64,000 nucleotides of DNA from Naegleria gruberi (Eukaryota). Where the stretch lies: assembly GCA_000004985.1 (NCBI GenBank), contig GG738873.1; one strand, given 5' to 3'. The notes below the pieces were generated by a model, which was given only the letters and a program-made list of their open reading frames with translations, was not told where the DNA came from and did no database searches. Positions 2,977-19,271 of this stretch are shown in pieces (position 1 is the stretch's first letter; each line of letters begins with the position of its first letter). Both the position numbers and the translations under genes were made by a program.

Positions 2977-5228
2977 TTATTTGCATGAAGAGTTCTTACA
3001 TTGTTGTTTGAAGAAAACAGTTCCCTTCTCAATCAATGAAGAAACATATTCATCACTGGTTGGATACATTTTTGGCTTAATGAGAGATGAGACTTTGACT
3101 TGATGTCGAGGTTTTCCATAGAGATCAGCCAATGCTTCACTCGGTAATAAATACCATCTCAAGTGGCCGTACTTGGATTTGAAGCCATAGGTTTCTTCAT
3201 CTCCAAATAGTTTTGTAATTTCTTCCTCAAAATCCAAAGTAAAGTTATTATTCTTGACTAGCTCAACTGACTGATCGAGTAATTGTTGAGCATTTTGTAA
3301 AATATCGGCATAATTGTGTAATTTCTTTGGTTCTGAGGTAAATAATTGATTGAACTTTTCAACAAATTCCAATTGACCATTTTGGAAAGTCACATCTGTC
3401 AACTTCTTTCTGTGTTGTGTTAAAAACTTGGTGAAATTGGCATGAATTGGTGCTGAATTGGAATCGAAATTTCTGTGCATCCATTCGTTTGTCTTTTCAT
3501 TGAAAATATAATAAGGCAAAAACTTCCAACCATGCGTGGCCACAAAATCCATCGCATTAAGTATAAAGTCCACCATCTTGTCATCGAAAAAGTAATTGAA
3601 ATTCAATCGTATCCATCCAGGTTTCAAATGAACTAGTGAAATAGGACTCTTATACGATTCCAATAAGGCTCCCTCCAATTCGTGAACTTCCTCTTGTGAA
3701 ATACCGAGAATTTCCTCTCCATACGGACCTGCACAAGCACAGCCACTTCTCGTCTGAATTCCAAACAAATCATTCATGAGTAAACTAATGAAAGAGTGGT
3801 GCAAATAATAATCACCATGTTTGACTAGAAAGGAAAAGAAGGCCAATCTATCAACTCCTCCCATTGATGCTTTCTTGACCTGGTCCTAGAATGTGTAAAT
3901 TTGGATTCCTACTCAAGAAATCAAAAGCCCTCTGTCTGTAATTCTCCTCAATTTTTGTAATCAATTCAGCTCCAACATCTTGTTTCAATTTGAATGCCAA
4001 GGCACATCGAATTGAGCCAATAATATCTGGAGTGCCTCCTTCCTCACGTTCCTCAATGATATTGGTATAACTATGATTGTTGGCATCAACAAAATAGACA
4101 GTTCCACCAGCTGGTCTATTTGGAGTCTCTGGAAATACAATTTCAGTCAACTACTAGAGGAAAATTTCAATACTACTTACTATTTTGGAATAGTTTCTTC
4201 TTGGCAACTAAAACACCAGGTGTTCCAGGGCCTCCAATAAACTTGTGTGGTGAAATAAAGATGGCATCTTTCTGATACATTGGATCATTTCTTGGATTCA
4301 TGTCAATTGGAACGTATGGAGCTGCTCCAGCATAATCAAAAAAGCACAATGCTCCAAATTCATGACTTAACTTTGAAATTCGATCACAATCTGTCAAAAC
4401 TCCGGTAACATTTGAACCAGCACTGAATGAACATATCAAAACTCGTTTTCCATTCTTGTACTTTTTCAAACATTCTTCCAAATATTCAAAATTCACATTT
4501 CCAAACTTGTCTTCAATAATTTGCACCACAATGGCTCCAACTTCTCTCCACGGCAAAATATTACTATGATGTTCATACGGTGATATAAACACAACAGGAA
4601 TCTCTTCATGACCACTAGCATTCTGAACTAGTTCTCTAATACCAATACAATGTACCAATGTTGAAATAGCCGAAGTACTTCCACTTCCTTGAAATAAGAC
4701 AACATCCGAATCTTCACCACCACTCAATCTTGCATTCACACATTCAGCAATAATTCTCCTAGCATCCTCTCTGAAATGAGTTGTCTGAAATCCACTAAAC
4801 GATGAAGTAGTATGTGTATTTGCATAGGTAGGTAAAACTTCCTCAAACAAATAATCTTCAATGAATTTGAGTGGTTTTCCAGAGGCAATATAATCACAAT
4901 AGGTTAGTGGAAGAAATCTATTTTCCTCAAATGGAGTTCTAAAGACTGCTTCACTTCCAATGATATTTTCATGAATATTCTTGATGAGGGAAACCTTGCT
5001 TTTCACAGTTTGCTTTCTGACACTTTCCTTTTCAAATTGTAAAGTTTCGTCTATTATCTTTTCTAATAACTTGTATTCGATAGAGTGTTCATCAAATGGT
5101 CGACTACTTCTTTGAGCCATCGTTCTCTTTGGACGAGTTAGTACAAGTGTCTTTTTGAACTTTTCAATTTCTTCGTCTGCATTCACCTTACGTGAGGATG
5201 ATGTAATTGTAATTTGTTTGTTTCCCAT
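2977..5228 (-). CDS. PLP-dependent class V aminotransferase / cysteine-desulfurase-like enzyme (~730 aa) with three coding blocks and two short introns
   Basis: Three collinear minus-strand ORFs (5228→4181, 4128→~3860, ~3830→2977). Fold-V motifs are present (…FISPHKFIGGPGTPGVLV…, QTRSGCACAGPYG, WIRLNFNYF…). Intron 1 is ~4129-4180 (GTAAGT…CCAG, 52 nt) and restores the frame. The second junction near 3830-3895 has two possible short introns (31 or 64 nt). Confidence 0.65.
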
Positions 5229-5977: not shown

Positions 5978-8900
5978 TCATCTTCTCCTTCTTCTTAATT
6001 GGTCAAAAACTGAATTATTCAAAATATCCTGTGCTTGAGGTCTGATGGCACTGTCCTTTTCCAACATTGATAAAGTCAAGTCAATGATATATTGAGAATA
6101 TTGACCAGGCTCTTCCATTTTCTTCTTTAATAATTGTGAAACTTCCTTTTGATCCTTAGTGACATAGAGTTGACTAATTGATGTAAAAGTGTCCTTAGTT
6201 ATTATTTGATAAATAGTTACACCTAAACTGTAAATATCAGTGTTATAGAAATACTTGCCACCATATCCCAATTCTTTAAAAAACAATTTAAAATTAATGT
6301 CAGTTATCTCTTAATTACTTACCAGGTGACATGAATAGAGGAGTGCCAGCATATGAATTATTGGTAGAACCTTGATTTGCTTTGGCCAATCCAAAATCTG
6401 CAATAACTATTTCAATATTATCCTTATCTAAACTCTTTACAAAAATATTGGATGGTTTGATATCTCTGTGGATGAGTTTCATTGAGCTGTGAATATAATC
6501 AAGAGCGCTACACATTTGGAAAATGATTTGCAATAATATCTGTTCTGAACATGTAGAATCATCTTTGGTCAATTGAACCAAATCTCCCAATTCATAAAAG
6601 TCCATATCAATACACAACAATTGATCCTTACTAATAAAAAAGTCATTAACCTTAAGAATATTTGAATGGTGAATATTCATCAATTGAGTTCCTTCCTTCA
6701 TAAAATTATTCAACTCCTCTGTTGATGTGTATTTGATTACTTTGATTGCCTTCATGGTGTTTGTTTTGGAATCAAAAGCTTTGAATACTGAACCAAAGGC
6801 ACCTTGACCAATTTTAACCAAGTCCATATATCTTGAGAGTGGATTGAAGGATTGACTGCTACCTCCAGTAGATGAGATACTAGTGAGAGGAGTCAAAAAC
6901 ATACTGGCATCTGATGGGAAATCACTTGATTGACCAAGCTCAATATTTTGAATAGTTTGAAGTTCGTACGCTTTTTGAGATTTTAATTTCCAAACACAAA
7001 CTGAAAATACCACTACAATAATAGCTATGATAATTATTGCAATCAACACAACTGGAATTGTAACACCAAGGATGATACCAAGAGTTTGATCATCAATGGA
7101 TCTGGGAATTGAGTTAGAAACATTAGGTGCATAATAATAAGCAAGTTCTTGAACTGTGAATAGAGATAAGTGATTAGTGACACATTCCAAATTGAAATAG
7201 AGTTTACCTTCCTCTCTTTTGACAATTGTCATTGATTGAGTCAAAATACCAGAATTAGACCAAGTTTGTTTCACTGAATCATAGTAACTGCATGAAATGT
7301 TAGTATCTGTCTTGTCATTTGTAAACAAATTATTGAACTTGATTGAAATTGGTTTTGTAAGGCCACTGACAGGTACTTGAGCTCCACTTTCTTGACTATA
7401 AATGGATAATTCAAAAATTGGTCTATTTTCAAGAATGTTATTTAGTGTGGTATCCTTCTTGATCAATGAAGAGCTGTAGAATAATTTGACATTGTTTGGA
7501 ATACTTAATTGAGAAGTAAAATCGGATGGGAAACTGGCCGAAACTTGAATAGTATCTTCAATCATTATAGAAATTTCCTTTCCATTCAATTGAGTTTCCA
7601 AATCCAGACTTTCAAGTGAATAAGTCCCCAATGTATTATTCGTAGTCAACCCACTCAACAATAAATATTTAACTTGATATCCTACAATGAGTGATTGTTT
7701 CTCTAATTTTGAGGAAAATCTCTTAATCAAAATAGATTGTAAATTTGATAGCTCAGTATAGTGAGTTTCGTCCAATAGAGTTAATCTTAATGCAGAAGTA
7801 TAGTACTGCTTGGATTTGTCCATTCCTGAATAAGTCCAATCAAGCCACTTTACAAGATTATCAGTCATGGAATTGATGGAATTTTCATCTTGTAAAGTGA
7901 GATCGAGAATTGAGAAAATATCACAAATTATTGGAAGGACCATTTGAATAAGTTTTTCATCGACTTTGGATGTCAAACTCTGTACATTATTTAGGAGTGA
8001 TAGCATTTCATTCAAATTGGAGTTTAGAGTTTGAATTTGAGAATTGGAAGTTTCGGTAAACAATCTTCCAGTGAAATTTTCAAAATTAGTTTCGTTTAAA
8101 AGGAGAATTGACATGAGGGAATTAATGGAATTGACAGTTTCAATCTTCAATGGTTCTACTCTTTTTAAAGTATAAAATTGATCATTTACATAATTCAGTT
8201 TAGACGAAATTGAGTTTGTAATCGAATTTGGAGCTTTCATTGTAATTGTTCTTGTAAGCGTTCCAATAGATCCATATCTATTGACAAGTTTTACAACGAG
8301 ATTTAAATCTGAACCATCTCTACTGAGTGGAAGTCTGGTTACAAGGTTTTTCTTTAGAGTGTTGGAAAGAATTGATATTCTTTCTCCTTGTTGAGAATGA
8401 ATTTCCATTACATAATTCGAAACTGGTTCTGAAGGTAAATTGAGACAAGAAATGGTCATGAAGCTTTCGAATGCATAATTAACAGCTTCGTTTCTTAAAT
8501 TGTAATAGGAACATGAAAATCTTGGAGTATTGTCAATTCTTGTGGAAAGTGAAATATTCGATTGACCAAACTCATTCCAAGTTGACAACTCAAATGAATA
8601 AAATTCACCATCAATCAAATATTCATTTCCAATATTCAACTCTGATGTAACAGAATTACCACCAACATTTCTAATGGTTTCTCTATTTCTCAAGAATTCG
8701 TCCACATTCTCACCCACTGCAACATTCAATCTTCCTTCCACCAATTTCCAACTTGTTGTAACACTAGAAGTAGAAGAAATAAGAGTCTTTAAAACCAATG
8801 GACGATGACTAGCATGAATAGGAGGTCTATAAGGGCTACTAAGTTTTGGAGCTTGAATGGATGAATCAGTCAACTTGATAAAACCAATGAAATTGTAAGG

Positions 8901-11900
8901 AATTGAAACGAACGAGTTGGTATAGTAAACTATTAAATTGATAGAGTACATTCCTTCAGATAAATTCAAAGATGCTGGATTAAAAGTCAACGATTGTTGA
9001 GTATTTTGACTTGTACATAAATTTGAAGAAATGGTCAACTTGGTCAAAGGATCAACTTGGAAACATGAATAAGAATAAGTGAAATAATCCTTAATAGTAA
9101 ATGTCGTAATGAATGGATCATCATTTTCAAATGTTATAGTAATGGCTCCATTTCTAATAGAATGTGTTCTATTGACTTGTGTCAAGACATGATCCAATCT
9201 GTCAAATGTTTTGTAATTGAAATAGTATGGAAGTGATAAACTTTCATATGTTTTCAAGTGTAATCCAACTACTTGTGCATTAGAATTGTATTCACTATCA
9301 ATTAGTTCATTATTATAAATGTTGACTAATCTAAACATTTGCTTTTGAAAAACTTCAGCATTTAAAAGACTGAAAAATCCAGAAAAAGTATACGAAATGG
9401 AACTATTCAATGAATTCAAGCTAGATTCTACAATACAATTATGTCCAACACATGAAAATGGAGCATCCTTAACATTATCTCCAAACCAAGTGAAAGAAGG
9501 TGGTAAACTCTTGAGATTTGGTTGAACTCTTGTAATATCTCTTGAACTAGTTGCATAATTTAACAAGTTGACTGAATCAAGTTTCAAAGTGAGTACTTTC
9601 AGATAAGAGGCATCCAATGGAATGGTATTTAACAAGGAAATTGGAATGTTGATAATTGACTTGTTGTTATATTGTAAAAGATGGGATGAAATAGTTTGAG
9701 GACAATTTTCACATGTCCACACACGTTGAACTCGTTTGAAGGAATGGTAATAGTCATCTGTGTTGGATCTAACAATCAAATCTTGACTTGGTGGGAGAGT
9801 GGTGAGTAAATCATTGATTGAGGAAACAAAACTTCTTCCTTTCATAATGTTTAAAGATTCAGTTGAGTTGACCATCAATGAAATGTTATATCTGCTATCA
9901 GAATCAAGTAAAATTATTGATCCATGTACAATTGAGTGATCATATCCGAGTAAAATCTTGAAATAAGAACTAGTCCACAAGCATTGAACAAAATCCTTCT
10001 CACCAAATCTTGACTGTTCGTCCAAATTCATAATTTGATCACATGAGAAAATACTACCTGCTTGTTTTGAAATATTGAGAATGTTACTGAATGGAGAATA
10101 GATTAAAGCATTAGGAACATCTAGAAGGACATGATGATGTTGACATTTGTTTCCAGCAAATCCTTCATTACATAAACAATTATCAATTCCAATACAGCTA
10201 CCTCTCGATGAGCAAACATTTGAATTATTGGAATAGAGACCAAAACAATTGCTGTGTTGACATTCCTCGCCTCCATATCCCGTGTTACAATTACATTGAT
10301 TTGGAGCTTGACATTTACCTCTTCCATAACATACAGAGCTAGAATTGGATAGAATTCCAAAACATGAAGTCAAGGAACAATCCTTCTCTTTCCAGCCCTG
10401 ATTACATGTGCAGTTATCATAGGAGCTACATTGACCATTACCTGAACAAATGTATGAAGTATTAGACGAAAGTACATTGTAACATTTTAAAAATTCACAT
10501 CTACTACCACCCCATTCTTTTGGACATTTACAATCACCAGGTCCATCACATGTTCCGTTGTTTTGACAAACACTAACTCCAACAGATTGACCAGCACAAG
10601 TAAAATCATCACAAAAAGCACCAAAATAACCTATTGAACATGTACAGTTATTGTAAAAGTTACAGACACCGTGTCCAGAACATACACCTGGAGATGTTTT
10701 CACAATTCCATTACAATTATATAATTCGCACTCATTGCCATAGTATCCAAATGGACAGGAACAATTATTGTAAGCTGTACATTGACCTCTTCCAGAACAA
10801 ACTGAAGAGTTGGAAACTGCCATACCAAAACATGTGAAATTCATGCATGCACTTCCAAAATATCCCTCCACACATGAACAATTGTTTGGTTTAATGCAAC
10901 TTCCATGAGAGGAACAAACAGATGGGTTGGTATTTCTAATTCCAAAACAATCAAACTGTTCACAATTAGTGCCATTGTAAAGAGCTGTGCAGTTACAATA
11001 GTTTGGAGATTGACATGTTCCTCCACCTGAGCAAACATTTGTGGCCTGGTAATTGACTCCATAACAATCAAATTCTTCACAATTAGCTCCATAATAATTT
11101 GTATTGTAACATGTACATTCCAAGCTTGTACTGTTAAAGTATTTCTGGCTACTTCCACAAGATTGGAAAGACATGAGTCGAATAACATTATTTCCAGTAT
11201 CTGCAATGTAGATTTCACCAGAATTTCCTAATGCTAATCCTTCAGGATCACTGAATTGAGTATTGAGAGCAGCCATGAAATCTGGAGAGCTTCCTTTAGA
11301 TCCTGTTCCTGCAAGAGTTGAAATCTTACCATTAGTAACCTTTCTAATTCTCTGATTTTCCTTATCAATGAAAATCAAGTCACCTGTCGAGGTCACTTCT
11401 ATGGCGCCAGGCTTGTTTAACGAAGCTGACAAGGCACTTCCTCCATCTCCTGAAAAACCAGCAATACCATTACCTGCCACTGTTGAAATAATTCCACTTT
11501 GTAAATCAATTTTACGAATTACATGATTGATATTCTCAGTAAAATACAGAGCTCCAGAATATAATGCTATTCCATCAGGACCATTTAATTTGGCATTGAC
11601 TGCCAAATTTCCATCTCCTGAATATCCTGCACTCCCTGTTCCAGCAATAATATAAACATCCAAACCATCAATTTTAAGAATCATATTGTGTAAATAATCT
11701 GTCAAGTAAATAATGACTTTGTTGGGGTCATTAATCATGACGAAATGATTACTAGTGAAACTAGCTAGGTTATAGGTTGTTGGTGATGAAATTGGACCTC
11801 CTGTACAAGAACCTGCAATAAGAGAAACTGTGTATCCAGAATCCACTCTCTTCACAGCACAATTATTCTCCAGAAAGAATATTTTAGAATCGACCTGTCG

Positions 11901-13298
11901 TTGTAAGCCATAGTTTGGAGTGGTAATAACAGGACCAGTGGTACTAGTTGCACTGGATGAAGTTGTTTGACCAATGATACCTGCAAGATTGGTAATTATT
12001 TTGGAGGAGAGATCAATACTTCTCACTGCATAACTATTGGAATCAGCAAGTGTCAACACTCCATTCAAATAATAAACACTTGTTGGTTTTGAAAGGAAGG
12101 CAGAAAGAGCAGGTATTCCACTACCAAATTGTTGACTACTTGTACCTGCTATAGTTGAAATGGTGGATGCTTGTCCATCAGACACTGTTGCCTTTCTTAT
12201 TCTATTATTTCCCAGGTCAGCAATGTAAATATTTCCATCGCCATACACAACATTTGATGGATTTGAAATGCAATTTGTGGCAGCCGACCCATCATTAAAA
12301 CCTGGTTGTAAATTAACACCCACAAACTCAGTAATGAGATAGGGACTTTGAATAATGTTTTTTCTCCTGATTGTGTGACCAAGTGAATTGCAAATATACA
12401 TGTATCCACTTGCAATAGTCAACCCTTGAGGTCTTATTAAATCGCTATTACCAACGACTTCAGATACAGTATTGGAAGACAGTTTACAAACTCGATCATT
12501 ATTAGTATCAGAAAAATAGAGATTGTAATCATCACTTGAGAAGAATACTCCATACGGTGAAGCCAATTTCAAATTTAATGGTGGTTGAGTCATGTCACTT
12601 GATCCACTCATACCAGCAATACCAACTACTCTAATCACCATTGGAGTGCTATCCAATTGAGTTATTTTACGAATTATATGATTACCAGTATCTGCAAAAT
12701 AAATCTCTGTATTTGCTGGATTAATTGTAATACCACTTGGACTACTCAACTTGGTTAGAAGAGCAATTCCATCCCCAGAAACATCTGCTACTCCAGTTCC
12801 AGCAATTGTTGTAATTGTACCATTCACATAAATTTTCCTAATACGGTGATTTCCAGTATCAGTAAATACAATGTCACCATTATTCATCAAAATTATGCCT
12901 CTAGGTTGATTAATTGCAGCATTGACAGCTGGACCACCATCTCCTGAGAAACTATTTGCCACGCCATTGCCAGCAATTGTTGTGATCTTTCCAGTTGAGT
13001 CAATCTTTCTAATTCTATTGTTTGATGTATCGCAAATGTACATTGGATAAATTGTGTTAGGTGTAATTGCAATACCAGATGGTCCTTTTAATGAAGAGGC
13101 AGTTGCTGGTAGATTATCTCCAACAACATTGCCGCCACCTGCCAAAGTTGTCATGTTAAAAATTGGCACCGAACAATGACTCTCAACACATGTCAAAACA
13201 AACACAACTGCTAGCAATAGAATGAAGGGAACTACAACCAGATTGTGTACGGACACATGCCTGTCCATGCGTGTGTGAGAGCGATGTGAAAGAGGCAT
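5978..13298 (-). CDS. Receptor-like Ser/Thr protein kinase: signal/anchor, ~14 NHL repeats, ~12 tenascin-type EGF-like Cys repeats, large extracellular region, one TM helix, C-terminal kinase domain. Two exons with a 49-nt intron at ~6273-6321
   Basis: 6984-nt uninterrupted ORF. NHL repeats follow the pattern (SGDGG.A..A.LN.P.GI…D.GNHRIRKI). EGF-like repeats follow CxCxxGYxGxxC. TM segment GIILGVTIPVVLIAIIIIAIIVVVF. Kinase motifs GQGAFGSV…HRDIKPSN…DFGLA…GTPLFMSPE. The E of APE and subdomains X-XI (ELGYGGKYFYNTDIYSLG…) continue in the 5978-6272 exon after a GTAAGT…AAAG intron. Confidence 0.8.
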
Positions 13299-14123: not shown

Positions 14124-15867
14124 TTACAAAAGGAAAATGGAGGCAATGACTAAAAGGACAACAAAGAGACTAGAGAAAATTGGAGCAGAAAAACTCATTA
14201 CAGGAGTAGGAGAGAGGGAAGTATTATGTACATTATTAGGAATACTCATTACAGGATTAGGTGTAGGAGTACTCTTTTCAGGTGTAGGAGTGAGGGAAAT
14301 GAATTTGTTACCAAAATTGAGCTGCAGCAGACAAGTCAACAACCATTGGAGCATTCATAAATCCAGAGAATGTACTAGTAGCACAATCAATATCCAAATT
14401 GATCTTAATCTTCATGGTTAGACCTTTCCATTTTGACTAACTGGAACAACATCGAACGACAATTCATTTTCCAAGAGAATTCCCTTAATAACAGTTGATG
14501 GTCCAAGATTTTGGGTGGCATTAGAGAGGACAATAGTACCATTGGCAAACCATGATGACATATAACCAGTGTAAGAACCTTGAATTCTTTCCAAGAGAGC
14601 ACCAGGATAAGCTGGGGTAGCAACACTCTTACGGAGTTGTTCAATGATTGGAGTGAAAATAATTGGGGCATTCTTGAGAGCAATATTGTTAGCAACTGGA
14701 GAGTTCAATGAAGCCAAAGTGATCATTACAAAATCAAGTTCTGGAACAACCAATGGTTTGGCATTGTAGCCGTAAACAGAACCTCCCTTGGTCAAGTAGA
14801 ACAAGTTATTTTTGTCATCATACATGGTTTCAAAAGCACCCAAACCAATGGTGAATGTAGCATCGTTAGCCAAGAAGGTTGGCATGATGAATTGTCTCAT
14901 GGCATCCTTTGAAATTGGAACAGGGCACGCAGTGGCATTGTTAAGAGAGCTATAGGTGAAACAAGAGAAGAATTTTAACATATCATTAGCAGTACTGTAC
15001 ATGCCACTCTTGGGCCAACAACATGGTCAAATAATCTGGATCTCTACCAACAACCATCTTGGAAAGAATATCAGAAGAGTAATCAAATCCAGTGTTAGTC
15101 ATGCCCAACTTGTCGAAAATGTTAGTCTTACAGAATTCTCTGAATGATTTACCTGTAATCAATTCAAGAACTCCACCCAAAATGGTAAAGTCAACATTAC
15201 TGTAATAACGATCACTTATGGATGGAGCCATAAATTGCAACAAGTCAACTGTGGTCTTTCTGTATTCATCAAAAGTCATACTGCAATTATATGGATCACA
15301 AGGAGAAGTTCTAGACAAACCAGCACCGTGACTCATTAATTGTCTGAAAGTAATCTTGTTAGTTGCTGTCGTAAAGTACTTGTTAGTATATTGAAAGTCT
15401 TTAACATAGTTAGTGATTGGTTCATCAATACTCTTAATAAGACCCAATTCTTGAGCAATCAAAGCAGCCATACTGGTAAAAACTTTAGTGACAGAGGCAA
15501 CTCTAAAGATGGAATCGGCAGTTGGAGTTTCAGTTTCCTTACCCTTAGTACCAACTTGACCAACACCTTGGTTCATAACAACAGTATCTCTATATTTGGC
15601 AAGAATAATTCCGGATCCATTCTTTACACCATTGTCAACCAAAATAGATTTAACCATATTATTCTTGAGTTCTGTTAAAGCAGATTGAAGAGTTGAAACA
15701 TCAATTTCTGCAGATCTTGGAAGAATGTTACATTTAGGGTTTGCATCAGATGCCTTCAATACTCTGACTTGAGACTTGAGAGATCTAGCACTTGCCTTTG
15801 GATTGACATCAGAACTTATCTTAGTGTAAGCAACGAACCAATCAAGACCTGGCATCCAGAAGTACAA
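14124..15867 (-). CDS. Beta-lactamase/transpeptidase-fold serine hydrolase (copy 2, complete catalytic module with SxxK and YxN). It probably ends in a Thr/Pro-rich linker plus a hydrophobic GPI-signal-like tail exon
   Basis: Motifs ASVTKVFTS (SxxK), YSNVDFTILGG (YxN), TANDMLKFF, GLGAFETM…GGSVYGYNAKP. An apparent 1-nt frame change lies near 14990-15010. The downstream exon candidate 14124-14325 is in frame after a GTCTAA…CTGCAG intron (~14326-14421) and encodes …TPTPEKSTPTPNP…SFSAPIFSSLFVVLLVIASIFLL*. Confidence 0.55.
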
Positions 15868-17012
15868 GTTGCCACATTTGAGAATCTAAGAACTTCATTT
15901 CCGTAACCTCCCTTAAACAATGTCAAAGAATCGATATATGCAGCTTCTTGAATATCTCTAATAATGAAAGCATTATTTGGTTGGTAATCCAAATCAAAAT
16001 TAACATAATTTCCACCCAAATTAATGTTCATAATAGTTTGACCATCTTGATAATACAAAGTGGCATTGGTTCCATCAGCATTACACAAATAGGTACCTTG
16101 GTACTTGGCTTGATCTTGAGCTGGAGGTAAAACAAATGCTGGCATGACAGAAACATATTGACTCATAAGTGTTCCAACAGCCTTAGCATAAATTTGTTCA
16201 GCAATATATGTAGCAAAGACATCTCTATTGGAAGAAATTGAAATGATTGCAAACTTGTATTCTGGAACAAAGATCATGTGAGTAGAAAATCCGAGAACGC
16301 TTCCTCTCTTAGATCTCTTCCATACGTTATACTTGCTATCGTGACTCATTTCAAAGGCAAAACCAGTTGCATTTTGAGCGTCTGGAGAAATATATTGAGG
16401 AGTGAAAAATTCACGAACAGTTTGACGAGTAAGAATACTTTCATCATTCAAGATTGAGGAGGCATAATAGGTCAAATCTTGCAATGTAGAGTAAGCATCC
16501 ATGGAACCTTCACACCAACCAGACTTTAATTCAGAATCGAATGTGATAGTGGCATTGCCAGCATAGCTAGGAGCAACATGAGTGGAAACAGTGAGGAGAT
16601 CAGAGACGAGACCAGAGTTGGACATGGAGGCACTTTTCATTACATCCTTAAGATTAGAAGAGACGGATTGACCATTAATTTTAGCAAGAGCTTGACTCAA
16701 CCAACAATAACCAAAGTCAGAATAAACTGGTACAGAGTATGGTTCATGTACAACTGAAGAATGTCCAGGAAGACCAGAAGCAGCCATTGCCTTAACAACT
16801 TCATCATTAGAAAGATTACAATCAAATAGTTTGCAAGGAGCTTGTCTTCCGAGACCACTCATGTGTGTGGACAATTGTCTCAAAGTAACAGAGGAAATTG
16901 GAAACTTGGAGAATGTACTAGTGAGAGCATCATCGAGTTTCAACTTTCCAGCATCTCTCATTCTGAACATTTGAGTAGCAACCAACAATAACGAAAATTT
17001 CGTAAAAAGCAA
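15816..17012 (-). CDS. Beta-lactamase-fold hydrolase paralog (copy 1) lacking its N-terminal ~120 aa, including the catalytic Ser. Either a truncated pseudogene or the upstream half of a tandem-duplicated gene
   Basis: Aligns with copy 2 from the SxxK position onward (LFTKFSLLLVATQMFRMRDAGKLKLDD vs SVTKVFTSMAALIAQELGLIKSIDE), so Ser is replaced by Leu. It retains YSDFGY, GFSTHMIFVPE and a DUF3471-like C-terminus. There is no in-frame ATG until MFRMRDAGK. The upstream flank is occupied by the 744-aa ORF. Confidence 0.5.
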   Translation of the reverse strand: MLFTKFSLLLVATQMFRMRDAGKLKLDDALTSTFSKFPISSVTLRQLSTHMSGLGRQAPCKLFDCNLSNDEVVKAMAASGLPGHSSVVHEPYSVPVYSDFGYCWLSQALAKINGQSVSSNLKDVMKSASMSNSGLVSDLLTVSTHVAPSYAGNATITFDSELKSGWCEGSMDAYSTLQDLTYYASSILNDESILTRQTVREFFTPQYISPDAQNATGFAFEMSHDSKYNVWKRSKRGSVLGFSTHMIFVPEYKFAIISISSNRDVFATYIAEQIYAKAVGTLMSQYVSVMPAFVLPPAQDQAKYQGTYLCNADGTNATLYYQDGQTIMNINLGGNYVNFDLDYQPNNAFIIRDIQEAAYIDSLTLFKGGYGNEVLRFSNVATCTSGCQVLIGSLLTLR

Positions 17013-17036: not shown

Positions 17037-19271
17037 CTATTTTTTTTTATTTGCCAAAATTTCTTTCAATTTTTTGAATACTGATTCTCTCTCCTTTCCT
17101 TCATCTGTAAACGAAAAACCATACAACAACACATTTGAAGGTGGAATACGTGTATTTCTATTTTGAACTCCAAAATCCTCAAATTCTTTTGACTCATCAT
17201 TCCATTGGAGCACAGAGAGATGAATTCTCTCATCATAATACAATAAATATTTTCCAACCTCATAATAATCTTGGCTCATTTGAGTTTTAAATGCAACCAG
17301 TGTTTCCAATTGTAAATGTTTTAGAAATTGTTTTTTCTTATCAGGAACAAAGTAATCATGAGATGAAATTTGAATTCTACTTCTTCTAGTGGTTTCTTCA
17401 TTAATGGTGACAGAGTTATTCGAAATTGAATTTTCTGTCAACCAAAAATCCAAATTGGTTTCATTGGAAAATAAAGACTTTGTTTTTTCTATAAAATAAT
17501 CTTCATACCATTTCCAAGTTGCATCTGCAAGCATTGATTTGATTTTGTTTAATCCTTTTAATAAATCTAATTCGAAAGCTGGTGGTGTGATAATGTCAGG
17601 AACATTGTTAGGTACAACATTATTTCTAAATATTTCAATAACTCCATCCTTTCCATTCAATCCTACCCATTTAGAATTATCATAATTAAATTCACGAACT
17701 TGCAAAACAGGTTTGTCATTTTCCATTTTAATTTTAAATCCATGAAAATCAGAAATTCCTTTAAATGTATTGACATTATCTTTAAATAAGGATTTAAAAT
17801 CAAACATTCTTTCTAAAAATGATATTTCAGGAACATTTTTAGAATAAATTTCTTTCTTTTTTTCAATAAATTCAAGAGGACTATGACATGAATTATTTTG
17901 AAAATAAATTGAATGAATTGAAAAAAATTGATCTATATCAGTATGAGTATGTCCAACAATCATGGTGCCAATAATTACTTTTTTTACCCACCCCAAACTA
18001 ACTAATAAACCTGCGAATGCTACAGCGTACTTGTTTTTGAGTTCTTTTGAGCAATTGTCTGCTTGTAAATACAGAATTGATGGTAAATTTCCTTTTTCTT
18101 TTTTTAAATTATATAAATATTCATACAGAACTGTTAGTGCCAAATTGGCTCCACCTTCACAATTAGGAAGTTTTAATTTAATCTGATATTTTCTTCCATG
18201 TGAAATTAGTCCATAATTTGATATGTTTAATTTTTTAACAGCATTACTATTTTTAGTAGCATTGGCAATTACTGGATATGGTGTTGCTTGTGCACCATCA
18301 ATTATTATAGATAAATACTTGTTTGGATTAGCTATTGCTTTTTCTATTTTTTTTTTAAAAACAAATCTTTCTCCACAACATTCATTAATATGTTTGGCTC
18401 TTGCTTTTTTTGCTTTTTCTTGCTCAACTTCATTTGTTGATCTCTTTAAATTATTTAATCTAGCACACTCATCACATTTTCCTAATCTAGTATTTTTTGG
18501 TAATTTAATATTGGGAAATAAGTTTTTTGCTTGTCTTTTAAAAGTATCCAACCTATAGTAAGCACCTTCTTGTGATGAGACATATATTTCATATATTGGT
18601 TTCCAAGTATTGAAACCAGTAATGTGCATTTCATTTGCATTAGGTAATGGTTCAGCAAAGTTTTCTGCGAATACTGAAAACCAAGATTTAAAATTTGTGA
18701 GCTTTTCACTATCTTCCTTAATTGGTGAATGTTGTTCGTCAATTTTAGATAAATCAGTCTTTTTGGATTTTTTCAATTTATATGAAGAAATACCATAAAT
18801 ATTTTTGAACATTATTTCACAAACAGGTTTTCCGTTAATTGTATAGTTGTTTGAGTGTTGTGTAATATTTCCAACAAATTTCAACTTGTCTTTTTCCTTC
18901 AATCCTGCATAGAATGTTCTTTTTTCAGTTATTTCCGAAATTGTAAAATTAGTATTGCAATGCTTAACGCAACAATTTTTCAAGATACATGAGGAAATCG
19001 CATTATCATTCAATAATTGTTTTGATTTTTTTCCTAATTTTTCCTCTGGTGATCTTAATCTTCGTTTTGTTGATTTGTATGTACGTTTTGGTTTTGTATT
19101 AATATTGGCAATCTCTGATGAATTAGTATTATTATTAATATTTTTATCACGATTTAATTTTAAATAAAGATTAATTGGTGATTCATCCTCTAATTCCGAG
19201 TTATTAAAATCTTGATAATTATTATCATCATTGTCCTGTTGAAAGTATGAAAGTAATTCACTTGCAGACAT
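17037..19271 (-). CDS. Intronless 744-aa lysine-rich ORF with DDE/DDD transposase-like motifs; candidate DNA-transposon ORF or domesticated transposase
   Basis: ATG at 19271, TAG at 17037, and no introns although neighbouring genes have them. Candidate catalytic triad SIIIDGAQ …(~80 aa)… LYLQADNCSKE …(~40 aa)… GHTHTDIDQFF with Tc1/mariner-like spacing. A Cys/His cluster (CILKNCCVKHCN, GKCDECARL) is present. The composition is unlike the housekeeping genes around it. Confidence 0.35.
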   Translation of the reverse strand: MSASELLSYFQQDNDDNNYQDFNNSELEDESPINLYLKLNRDKNINNNTNSSEIANINTKPKRTYKSTKRRLRSPEEKLGKKSKQLLNDNAISSCILKNCCVKHCNTNFTISEITEKRTFYAGLKEKDKLKFVGNITQHSNNYTINGKPVCEIMFKNIYGISSYKLKKSKKTDLSKIDEQHSPIKEDSEKLTNFKSWFSVFAENFAEPLPNANEMHITGFNTWKPIYEIYVSSQEGAYYRLDTFKRQAKNLFPNIKLPKNTRLGKCDECARLNNLKRSTNEVEQEKAKKARAKHINECCGERFVFKKKIEKAIANPNKYLSIIIDGAQATPYPVIANATKNSNAVKKLNISNYGLISHGRKYQIKLKLPNCEGGANLALTVLYEYLYNLKKEKGNLPSILYLQADNCSKELKNKYAVAFAGLLVSLGWVKKVIIGTMIVGHTHTDIDQFFSIHSIYFQNNSCHSPLEFIEKKKEIYSKNVPEISFLERMFDFKSLFKDNVNTFKGISDFHGFKIKMENDKPVLQVREFNYDNSKWVGLNGKDGVIEIFRNNVVPNNVPDIITPPAFELDLLKGLNKIKSMLADATWKWYEDYFIEKTKSLFSNETNLDFWLTENSISNNSVTINEETTRRSRIQISSHDYFVPDKKKQFLKHLQLETLVAFKTQMSQDYYEVGKYLLYYDERIHLSVLQWNDESKEFEDFGVQNRNTRIPPSNVLLYGFSFTDEGKERESVFKKLKEILANKKK

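Follow-up and report, generated by a model that had tools for sequence, protein, structure and literature searches.

GAIN domains have been treated as a feature of two families only, the adhesion G-protein-coupled receptors (GPCRs) and the PKD1-like proteins (PMC11697300), and what they do has mostly been accounted for by a tethered agonist that engages a multi-pass membrane domain. All of the GAIN domains analysed adjoin the first transmembrane (TM) helix on its N-terminal side (PMC3321182). Here we describe a gene of Naegleria gruberi, located at 5978..13298 on the minus strand of a 64,000-nucleotide stretch of contig GG738873.1 (assembly GCA_000004985.1); the whole stretch is referred to as the window. 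Because Pfam searches, hydrophobicity and homologues of identical layout agree, we conclude that the product of this single, once-spliced gene is a giant type-I receptor-like Ser/Thr kinase with NHL and EGF repeats, one TM helix and a cytoplasmic kinase. Judged from sequence profiles and a structural model, the ectodomain ends in a GAIN domain with a GPS motif directly before the TM helix, within a region that an earlier note on this DNA had left as 'uncharacterised'. We propose that the protein is an 'adhesion-type' single-pass type-I receptor Ser/Thr kinase, and assign a probability of roughly 0.6 to this layout and the inferred cleavage-coupled signalling taken together. The architecture as described seems very secure, and the cleavage-coupled mechanism, drawn by analogy, stands at or slightly below even odds.

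From the N-terminus, the protein reads as a signal peptide, 12 NHL blades, eight full and one partial EGF repeats, a Cys-poor region of ~630 residues, the GAIN domain, the TM helix, a juxtamembrane segment and the kinase. Full-length matches are limited to two N. gruberi 'predicted proteins', P0001 (NAEGRDRAFT_70943, EFC41168.1, D2VPQ1) and P0002 (NAEGRDRAFT_70317, EFC41830.1, D2VMZ5), with 48-49% identity over 95-98% of the query, the same Pfam set and kinase domains that are 73-75% identical. The kinase-bearing members further include P0122 (NAEGRDRAFT_70916) and P0144 (NAEGRDRAFT_49308) of N. gruberi and P0145 (FDP41_013523) of N. fowleri. These five relatives share the layout, an HL(S/T) triad, a juxtamembrane motif and the position of the kinase intron with the window protein. 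They carry no GAIN, GPS or REJ annotation, being named 'predicted protein' or 'non-specific serine/threonine protein kinase'.

The stretch preceding the TM helix is GPS-like and reads C2003-SYYDSVKQT-W2013-SNSG...LE-C2039-VTN-H2043-L-S2045-LFTVQE. Pfam GPS (PF01825) is the sole family matched by this juxtamembrane piece, over profile positions 2-44/45, with E-values of 0.076/0.022 for the window protein, 0.0017 for P0001 and 0.00029 for P0002; the scores (14-15.7 bits for the window protein, 21.7 for P0002) fall under the gathering threshold of 22.5. C2003, W2013 and C2039 align with Pfam-positive GPS proteins. When a middle-region profile was run in an exhaustive HMMER scan against 1.84 billion representative proteins, 24 proteins were matched in total. 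The non-Naegleria matches P0136 (a Clastostelium recurvatum transcript) and P0143 (from a metagenome) are canonical REJ+GPS proteins, and both exceed the Pfam GPS threshold exactly where the profile matches. By hhalign, the profile of the six kinase-bearing proteins reaches 96% for P0136 (E 2.4e-9, 35% identity) and 94% for P0143 (9.5e-8), and hmmsearch with the same profile gives 45.3 bits against P0136 in three collinear stretches. For a 20-sequence family profile, the top matches among PDB sequences are all adhesion-GPCR GAIN domains (ADGRG1 1.5e-7, ADGRG3 2.9e-5, ADGRL3 8e-5, ADGRF1 5e-4), in alignments of ~130 residues that stay in register across the Cys, Trp and HL-T columns. A four-sequence GAIN profile retrieved no match from the PDB sequence set.

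An AlphaFold2 model of aa 1685-2110, built on the 20-sequence alignment, has a mean predicted local distance difference test (pLDDT) value of 86.1 and a predicted TM-score (pTM) of 0.78. It contains a nine-helix bundle, a beta-sandwich, a low-confidence linker of ~20 aa and the TM helix, and thereby both subdomains that define a GAIN domain, a helical bundle and a C-terminal beta-sandwich of ~12-14 strands. The modelled bundle would be GAIN subdomain A (7653..8210, minus strand as are all features of the gene; aa 1697-1882), and the sandwich subdomain B (7146..7625, aa 1892-2051), which includes the GPS residues C2003, W2013, C2039, H2043, L2044 and S2045. The structures matched by the model, given with their two match values and with the distance where recorded, are BAI3 (4dlo; 15.4, 239; 4.2 Å), ADGRF1 (8hc0; 14.5, 239), CELSR1 (8vy2; 13.7, 255), ADGRL3 (8vti; 13.2, 246), GPR126 (6v55; 13.1, 239), CD97 (9mqr; 12.6, 196), GPR97 (7qu8; 11.8, 175; 2.8 Å) and GPR56 (5kvm; 11.4, 186). 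In Foldseek, CD97 (8ikj) is the sole match of this model at E<=1e-3; a ZU5 domain is also listed, which fits the published GAIN-ZU5 relationship.

A word-indexed homologue search with the middle region alone came back empty, missing even the ~50%-identical N. gruberi proteins that the HMMER scan found, and with the 20-sequence family alignment it returned one fragment. For low-complexity proteins from an AT-rich genome, an empty result of this kind is therefore not evidence of absence.

The predicted autoproteolysis triad, H2043-L2044|S2045 (7164..7172), lies in the turn between the last two beta-strands of the sandwich (model residues 348-357 and 362-367), where H-L-S occupies model residues 358-361 (triad 359-361). 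The TM helix (2073-2103) starts 28 residues after S2045. In rat latrophilin-1 (CL1), the GPS motif is held by two disulfides, C832-C801 and C834-C820 (PMC3321182). The window protein keeps the equivalent of C801-C832 as C2003 and C2039, the latter four residues before the His. The segment following the predicted cut, i.e. the stalk (7083..7166, aa 2045-2072), comprises the last GAIN strand, 'SLFTVQE', and then the linker; in the model the strand covers 362-367, and pLDDT is below 50 for 371-387. The stalk retains the F and V residues that pack into the beta-sandwich.

Extrapolating from adhesion GPCRs and polycystin-1, we would expect the GAIN domain to self-cleave at the L2044-S2045 bond within the secretory pathway, yielding an N-terminal fragment of ~2,000 aa and a C-terminal fragment of 379 aa with the stalk, the TM helix and the kinase. 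The fragments would stay non-covalently paired, because 'SLFTV' of the stalk would keep its place as the final strand of the GAIN beta-sandwich. The partner of the NHL propellers and the EGF array may sit on prey, on a substrate or on another cell, and binding to it, or a mechanical pull, could loosen or remove the N-terminal fragment. Either effect would give the C-terminal fragment a different conformation or oligomeric state and thereby switch the kinase output. The kinase would then stand in for the 7TM (seven-transmembrane) or 11TM effector of the known GAIN families. We only tentatively extend this scheme to a third functional class of GAIN receptor, in which autoproteolysis and force- or ligand-driven release of the N-terminal fragment gate a single-pass kinase; such a class is possible, with the odds somewhat against it. 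Release could, for example, expose the stalk 'SLFTVQELAYYY' and let C-terminal fragments associate and trans-phosphorylate.

Several observations weigh against the adhesion-type proposal. As a control, a Naegleria-only profile without the TM helix reaches solved GAIN domains at E 0.11-0.23 only (all three PDB sequences that it retrieved are GAIN domains), implying that the significant sequence link is transitive or depends on the canonical GPS proteins in the profile. Canonical GPS sequences are also rows in the alignment behind the confident model. A first AlphaFold model, from a 4-sequence alignment, had a pLDDT of 49 and no meaningful fold match; its Foldseek matches were generic helical repeats and were discarded. 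Both Cys residues of the C820-C834 pair are missing in the window protein. Its stalk positions +6 and +7 are occupied by Q and E, in contrast to the hydrophobic L and M found there in the tethered-agonist consensus of adhesion GPCRs, 'TxFAVLM' (PMC12716839), and it offers no 7TM pocket; the two polar residues would fit the absence of that pocket. Finally, the route from cleavage or shedding to the kinase is purely hypothetical.

Some of these points serve the strongest competing explanation, namely a conventional receptor kinase in which a non-cleaving GAIN domain acts as a rigid membrane-proximal spacer or interaction module and ligand induces dimerisation of the intact chain. Ligand-induced dimerisation is the default mechanism of single-pass receptor kinases, one of the two disulfides holding the scissile turn is absent here, and neither the pocket nor the stalk residues are those of a tethered agonist. 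Uncleaved GAIN domains do exist, as that of BAI3 is uncleaved despite a near-canonical motif (PMC3321182). However, the six kinase-bearing proteins (of N. gruberi, N. fowleri and the window) all retain H, L, S/T and the F that comes next, whereas other parts of the GAIN domain are only 30-52% identical, which is the pattern expected if the triad is under selection. Moreover, the GPS motifs of the canonical P0136 and P0143 likewise carry two Cys; therefore the single-disulfide form seems to be a normal, PKD/REJ-like variant rather than a degenerate or decayed motif, and it is compatible with membership. On balance, we regard the non-cleaving alternative as rather unlikely and retain the adhesion-type receptor kinase as the working proposal.

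The effector itself is the Ser/Thr protein kinase domain (6005..6830, aa 2157-2415, spanning the intron), which matches Pfam Pkinase at 1.6e-50. Its motifs are complete: GQGAFG 2164-2169, K2186, E2202, HRDIKPSN 2277-2284 (D2279), DFG 2301-2303 (D2301) and GTPLFMSPE 2318-2326 (SPE 2324-2326), so that HRDIKPSN, DFG and GTPLFMSPE, which the earlier note had named, were all located. From this motif set, the kinase is predicted to be catalytically competent. HRDxKxxN and G-T-x-x-F-x-S-P-E are Ser/Thr signatures in the Hanks and Hunter classification. Among solved kinases, the nearest are STK24/MST3 (1.5e-27), SLK, STK25, CAMK1, NEK1/7 and MAP4K1, and Pkinase outscores PK_Tyr_Ser-Thr (172 vs 121 bits). 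On both grounds the kinase appears to be nearest the STE20/NEK/CAMK type and not TKL-like, and the comparison with TKL kinases suggested previously is a poor fit. Between the TM helix and the kinase, the cytoplasmic juxtamembrane segment (6831..6989, aa 2104-2156) carries a Ser/Thr-rich motif, 'DFPSDASMFLTPL.S.S...SFNPLSRY', that is conserved over paralogues and species and may be regulatory.

One family member has departed from this pattern. P0144 has 'IHGNIKTSN' in place of HRD, a Gly-loop reading 'IGS---GRTF' and a shortened activation loop, with the HLS GPS triad kept, and is probably a pseudokinase. It lends some colour to the idea that the window protein, too, is a decaying or non-catalytic member, a pseudokinase or pseudogene with no signalling role. 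In the window protein, however, the Gly-loop, K2186, E2202, D2279, D2301 and SPE are intact, the kinase is 75% identical to that of P0001, and the 7.3 kb AT-rich coding sequence is free of frameshifts and stops, all of which make decay very improbable.

The gene structure rests on a minus-strand ATG-initiated open reading frame (ORF) of 2,327 codons at 6315..13298, preceded by in-frame stop codons upstream of the ATG. An ORF this long is expected by chance at ~1e-78, as estimated from the window base composition (G+C 33%, stop-codon frequency 0.074). Unspliced, it stops at '...GTPLFMSPGK*', inside kinase subdomain VIII. A 49-nt GT-AG intron at 6274..6322 (GTAAGT...AAAG; GTAAGT...TTTTTTAAAG) starts directly after 'TCA CCT G' and splits the kinase domain after 'GTPLFMSP'; with its removal, exon 1 (13298..6323, 6,976 nt) and exon 2 (6273..5978, 296 nt) are in frame. 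The spliced coding sequence of 7,272 nt encodes 2,423 aa and ends with a stop codon at 5978-5980, bearing out the single ~7-kb exon, 49-nt intron and product of ~2400 aa described before. The spliced relatives P0001 of N. gruberi, P0144 and P0145 of N. fowleri read '...GTPLFMSPELGYGGKY...' over the exon junction, and exon 2 aligns with them residue for residue to the C-terminus. This junction homology supports the joining of the kinase exon to the upstream ORF, on which the earlier note had let its proposal depend.

In the N. gruberi models P0002 and P0122, the similarity ends right after 'GTP(L/I)FM' and the models stop soon after. Since both derail exactly at the junction, as an unrecognised intron would cause them to, the intron position seems to be conserved. 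The deposited P0002 and P0122 apparently read through a short intron equivalent to window positions 6274-6322, so that in both the kinase domain is probably missing its final ~100 residues.

Could two adjoining genes, one for a secreted or anchored adhesion protein and the other for a cytoplasmic kinase, have been fused in assembly or annotation, or joined by a wrong splice? The last 98 residues do rest on the inferred 49-nt intron, but the unbroken 2,327-codon ORF already spans the signal peptide, NHL, EGF, GAIN, TM helix and kinase subdomains I-VIII, the same architecture recurs in at least five other Naegleria proteins, and exon 2 matches the spliced homologues as described above. An artefact, highly improbable to begin with, is effectively refuted by the single continuous ORF. 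No second, paralogous or tandem copy of the protein was found in the window by tblastn.

The distal ectodomain starts with an N-terminal signal peptide or anchor (13173..13298, aa 1-~42, hydrophobic core aa ~19-38), which the hydrophobicity scan places within aa 14-47; the orthologues P0001 and P0002 begin with classical signal-peptide-like sequences. The NHL blades (11163..13151, aa 50-712) match Pfam TEN_NHL at 4.9e-30 and NHL at 2.5e-24. NHL repeats have ~40-55 aa per blade and usually six blades per propeller; accordingly, the 12 blades counted directly probably form two six-bladed beta-propellers. The EGF array (10131..11159, aa 714-1056) consists of one 4-Cys partial unit and eight six-Cys units of 38-40 aa. 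Its Pfam matches (EGF_2 9.5e-25, EGF_TEN 3.7e-22, EGF_Teneurin 6.1e-18) and its directly read Cys register are of the teneurin/tenascin type. The single TM helix (6990..7082, aa 2073-2103, from the hydrophobicity scan; helix 388-425 in the model) is followed by KLKSQK. Of 30 N-glycosylation sequons, 28 fall in the ectodomain. Together, the signal or anchor, the single TM helix and the sequons on its N-terminal side indicate a type-I receptor with an ectodomain of ~2,030 aa.

In these respects the earlier note had the modules right and some of their sizes wrong. Pfam supports its NHL, EGF and Pkinase assignments, and the scan bears out its signal or anchor and one TM helix. Its ~14 NHL repeats are 12 on direct count, and its ~12 EGF-like repeats are eight six-Cys units with one 4-Cys partial. 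The ectodomain region that it put at ~900 aa does exist, measures ~1,000 aa and is not featureless, the last ~355 aa being assigned here to the GAIN domain.

Identity to P0001 is 41% in the NHL region, 49% in EGF, 54% in the middle region, 52% in GAIN and 75% in the kinase. The rise from NHL to kinase suggests that the distal propellers are a fast-evolving ligand-binding end. The best non-Naegleria matches of the NHL region are very large bacterial NHL-repeat proteins and metagenomic sequences, the named ones from Acidobacteria and Bryobacterales, with 640-1270 bits and 28-38% identity over ~25% of the query. These matches may mean that the propellers came from bacteria, or that the repeats inflate the scores.

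The Cys-poor middle ectodomain (8229..10130, aa 1057-1690) has no Pfam match, and Pfam REJ is absent from the window protein and its kinase-bearing relatives. We tentatively call it REJ-like: the profile of the six kinase-bearing proteins is collinear with P0136 also inside the Pfam REJ region of the latter (i-E 2e-4), a weak match, and a similarly weak hhalign probability of 52% is obtained for the middle region against P0136.

Another group of giant proteins, kinase-less, shares the NHL-EGF-...-TM layout; it consists of P0101 and P0121 of N. lovaniensis and P0126 of N. gruberi. P0121 passes Pfam REJ, none of the three has the HL(S/T) triad, and from the EGF array to the TM helix they have no significant similarity to the kinase-bearing group. 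We dropped a transfer of the REJ label from P0121 since BLASTP, a kinase-only hidden Markov model and hhalign all give no significant similarity of P0101, P0121 and P0126 in the middle region; their high scores in the HMMER scan arose because P0101 was a row of the search profile. The notion that kinase-less relatives had lost the HL-S/T triad was dropped likewise, the three proteins being not demonstrably homologous there.

The Naegleria relatives are distinct proteins with at most 49% overall identity; neither the window protein nor a neighbouring ORF has an exact copy on record. The sequence nearest to the window protein, with 71% identity, is a metagenomic fragment of 238 aa. The family has additional members in N. 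gruberi, N. fowleri and N. lovaniensis, and in many shorter Naegleria proteins EGF repeats occur together with GAIN-B/GPS, a TM helix and a short tail. UniRef names P0139 (N. lovaniensis C9374_007585, 159 aa) a 'GAIN-B domain-containing protein', and P0132, a transcript fragment of the rhizarian Lapot gusevi, also matches the GAIN-B/GPS profile. GAIN-B-like single-pass proteins may thus be commoner in protists than the literature suggests.

The exhaustive scan, with its 24 matches, returned no amoebozoan kinase-bearing relative, and among the proteins scanned the kinase-bearing family appears to be confined to Naegleria. The amoebozoan setting assumed in the earlier note is accordingly not borne out, as all full-length relatives are from Naegleria (Heterolobosea, Discoba) and the dictyostelid framing does not apply. 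That the gene is a dictyostelid-like receptor kinase belonging among the TKL or 'other' kinases of social amoebae can be dismissed: an AT-rich genome, short introns and tenascin-like EGF repeats superficially resemble dictyostelid genes, but the proteins sharing the architecture or the middle region are all from Naegleria and the kinase fits Pkinase and STE20, NEK and CAMK relatives over PK_Tyr_Ser-Thr.

The flanking genes bear no relation to it. They comprise a class-V aminotransferase (4173-5228), beta-lactamase-like ORFs (14986-17012) and a DUF7869 ORF (17037-19271). The minus-strand ORFs 14986-15867 and 15816-17012 overlap and match complementary parts of Pfam Beta-lactamase (23-184 and 60-308 of 329), and the pair appears to be a single gene that a short intron or a frameshift has divided. 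The 744-aa ORF at 17037-19271, also on the minus strand, matches DUF7869 at 3.9e-43 and may be mobile-element-related; G+C is 0.27-0.28 over 17-20 kb vs 0.31-0.38 over 1-17 kb.

The individual modules (NHL, EGF, GAIN and the eukaryotic protein kinase) are known; their combination is undescribed in the open-access literature. In that literature we found no description of a GAIN-kinase fusion, no paper on GAIN domains and Naegleria together, and no relevant description of the Naegleria kinome or receptor kinases. Naegleria, NHL, EGF, GPS and GAIN all go unmentioned in a survey of protist transmembrane kinases (PMC10463195). The N. gruberi homologues have long been publicly available, as 'predicted proteins' only.

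If a single-pass kinase does carry a GAIN domain whose cleavage triad is intact, the module can join a different effector. Such a protein would also provide a natural test of those GAIN functions that are independent of a 7TM pocket, i.e. self-cleavage, holding of the fragments and force-dependent release. Full GAIN domains in Discoba would point either to an origin deep in eukaryote history or to lateral transfer. If the third-class reading were true, the 'cleave, hold, release' switch of GAIN would be an ancient, effector-independent module present in Discoba and coupled separately to 7TM, 11TM and kinase outputs. The member from the brain-eating amoeba N. fowleri, FDP41_013523, would be a large surface-exposed receptor with a druggable kinase, and is at present annotated for its kinase domain only.

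Compared with known systems, the topology of the window protein is that of TGF-beta receptors and plant RLK/Pelle kinases: type I, one TM helix, a cytoplasmic Ser/Thr kinase and a Ser/Thr-rich juxtamembrane segment. The kinases of TGF-beta receptors and plant RLK/Pelle proteins belong to the TKL group and are joined to unrelated ectodomains, whereas the window kinase appears to be of STE20/NEK/CAMK type; we know of no TGF-beta receptor or plant RLK with a GAIN domain. Teneurins resemble it in combining NHL blades and teneurin/tenascin-type EGF repeats in one ectodomain (Pfam TEN_NHL, EGF_TEN, EGF_Teneurin). However, teneurins are type II with EGF before NHL, whereas the window protein is type I with NHL before EGF. 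It also lacks the YD shell, FN-plug and toxin domain of teneurins, with no YD, RHS or Tox-GHH Pfam match, and to our knowledge teneurins have neither a kinase nor a GAIN domain.

The adhesion GPCRs (latrophilin/ADGRL, BAI3/ADGRB3, GPR56/ADGRG1, CD97/ADGRE5) have seven TM helices, in contrast to the one TM helix and cytoplasmic Ser/Thr kinase described here; the window protein has no Pfam 7tm match and is not a class B2 receptor by its 7TM region. They carry two GPS disulfides where it carries one. Since its stalk has Q and E rather than L and M at +6 and +7, the tethered-agonist/7TM mechanism is inapplicable. GAIN subdomain A has nine helices in our model, as compared with up to six in adhesion GPCRs and up to eight in PKD1 models (PMC11697300), so that in its extended subdomain A the protein resembles the PKD1 GAIN models. 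Likewise, the two-Cys GPS motif, as in the canonical REJ+GPS proteins P0136 and P0143, recalls polycystin-1, PKD1-like and sea-urchin REJ proteins, and the weak collinear match of the pre-GAIN region to the REJ module is a further likeness to REJ proteins. Pfam PLAT, PKD_channel, REJ and PKD give no matches in the window protein. Polycystin-1 and PKD1-like proteins continue from the GAIN domain into an 11-TM channel-like region with PLAT, whereas the window protein continues into one TM helix and a cytoplasmic kinase.

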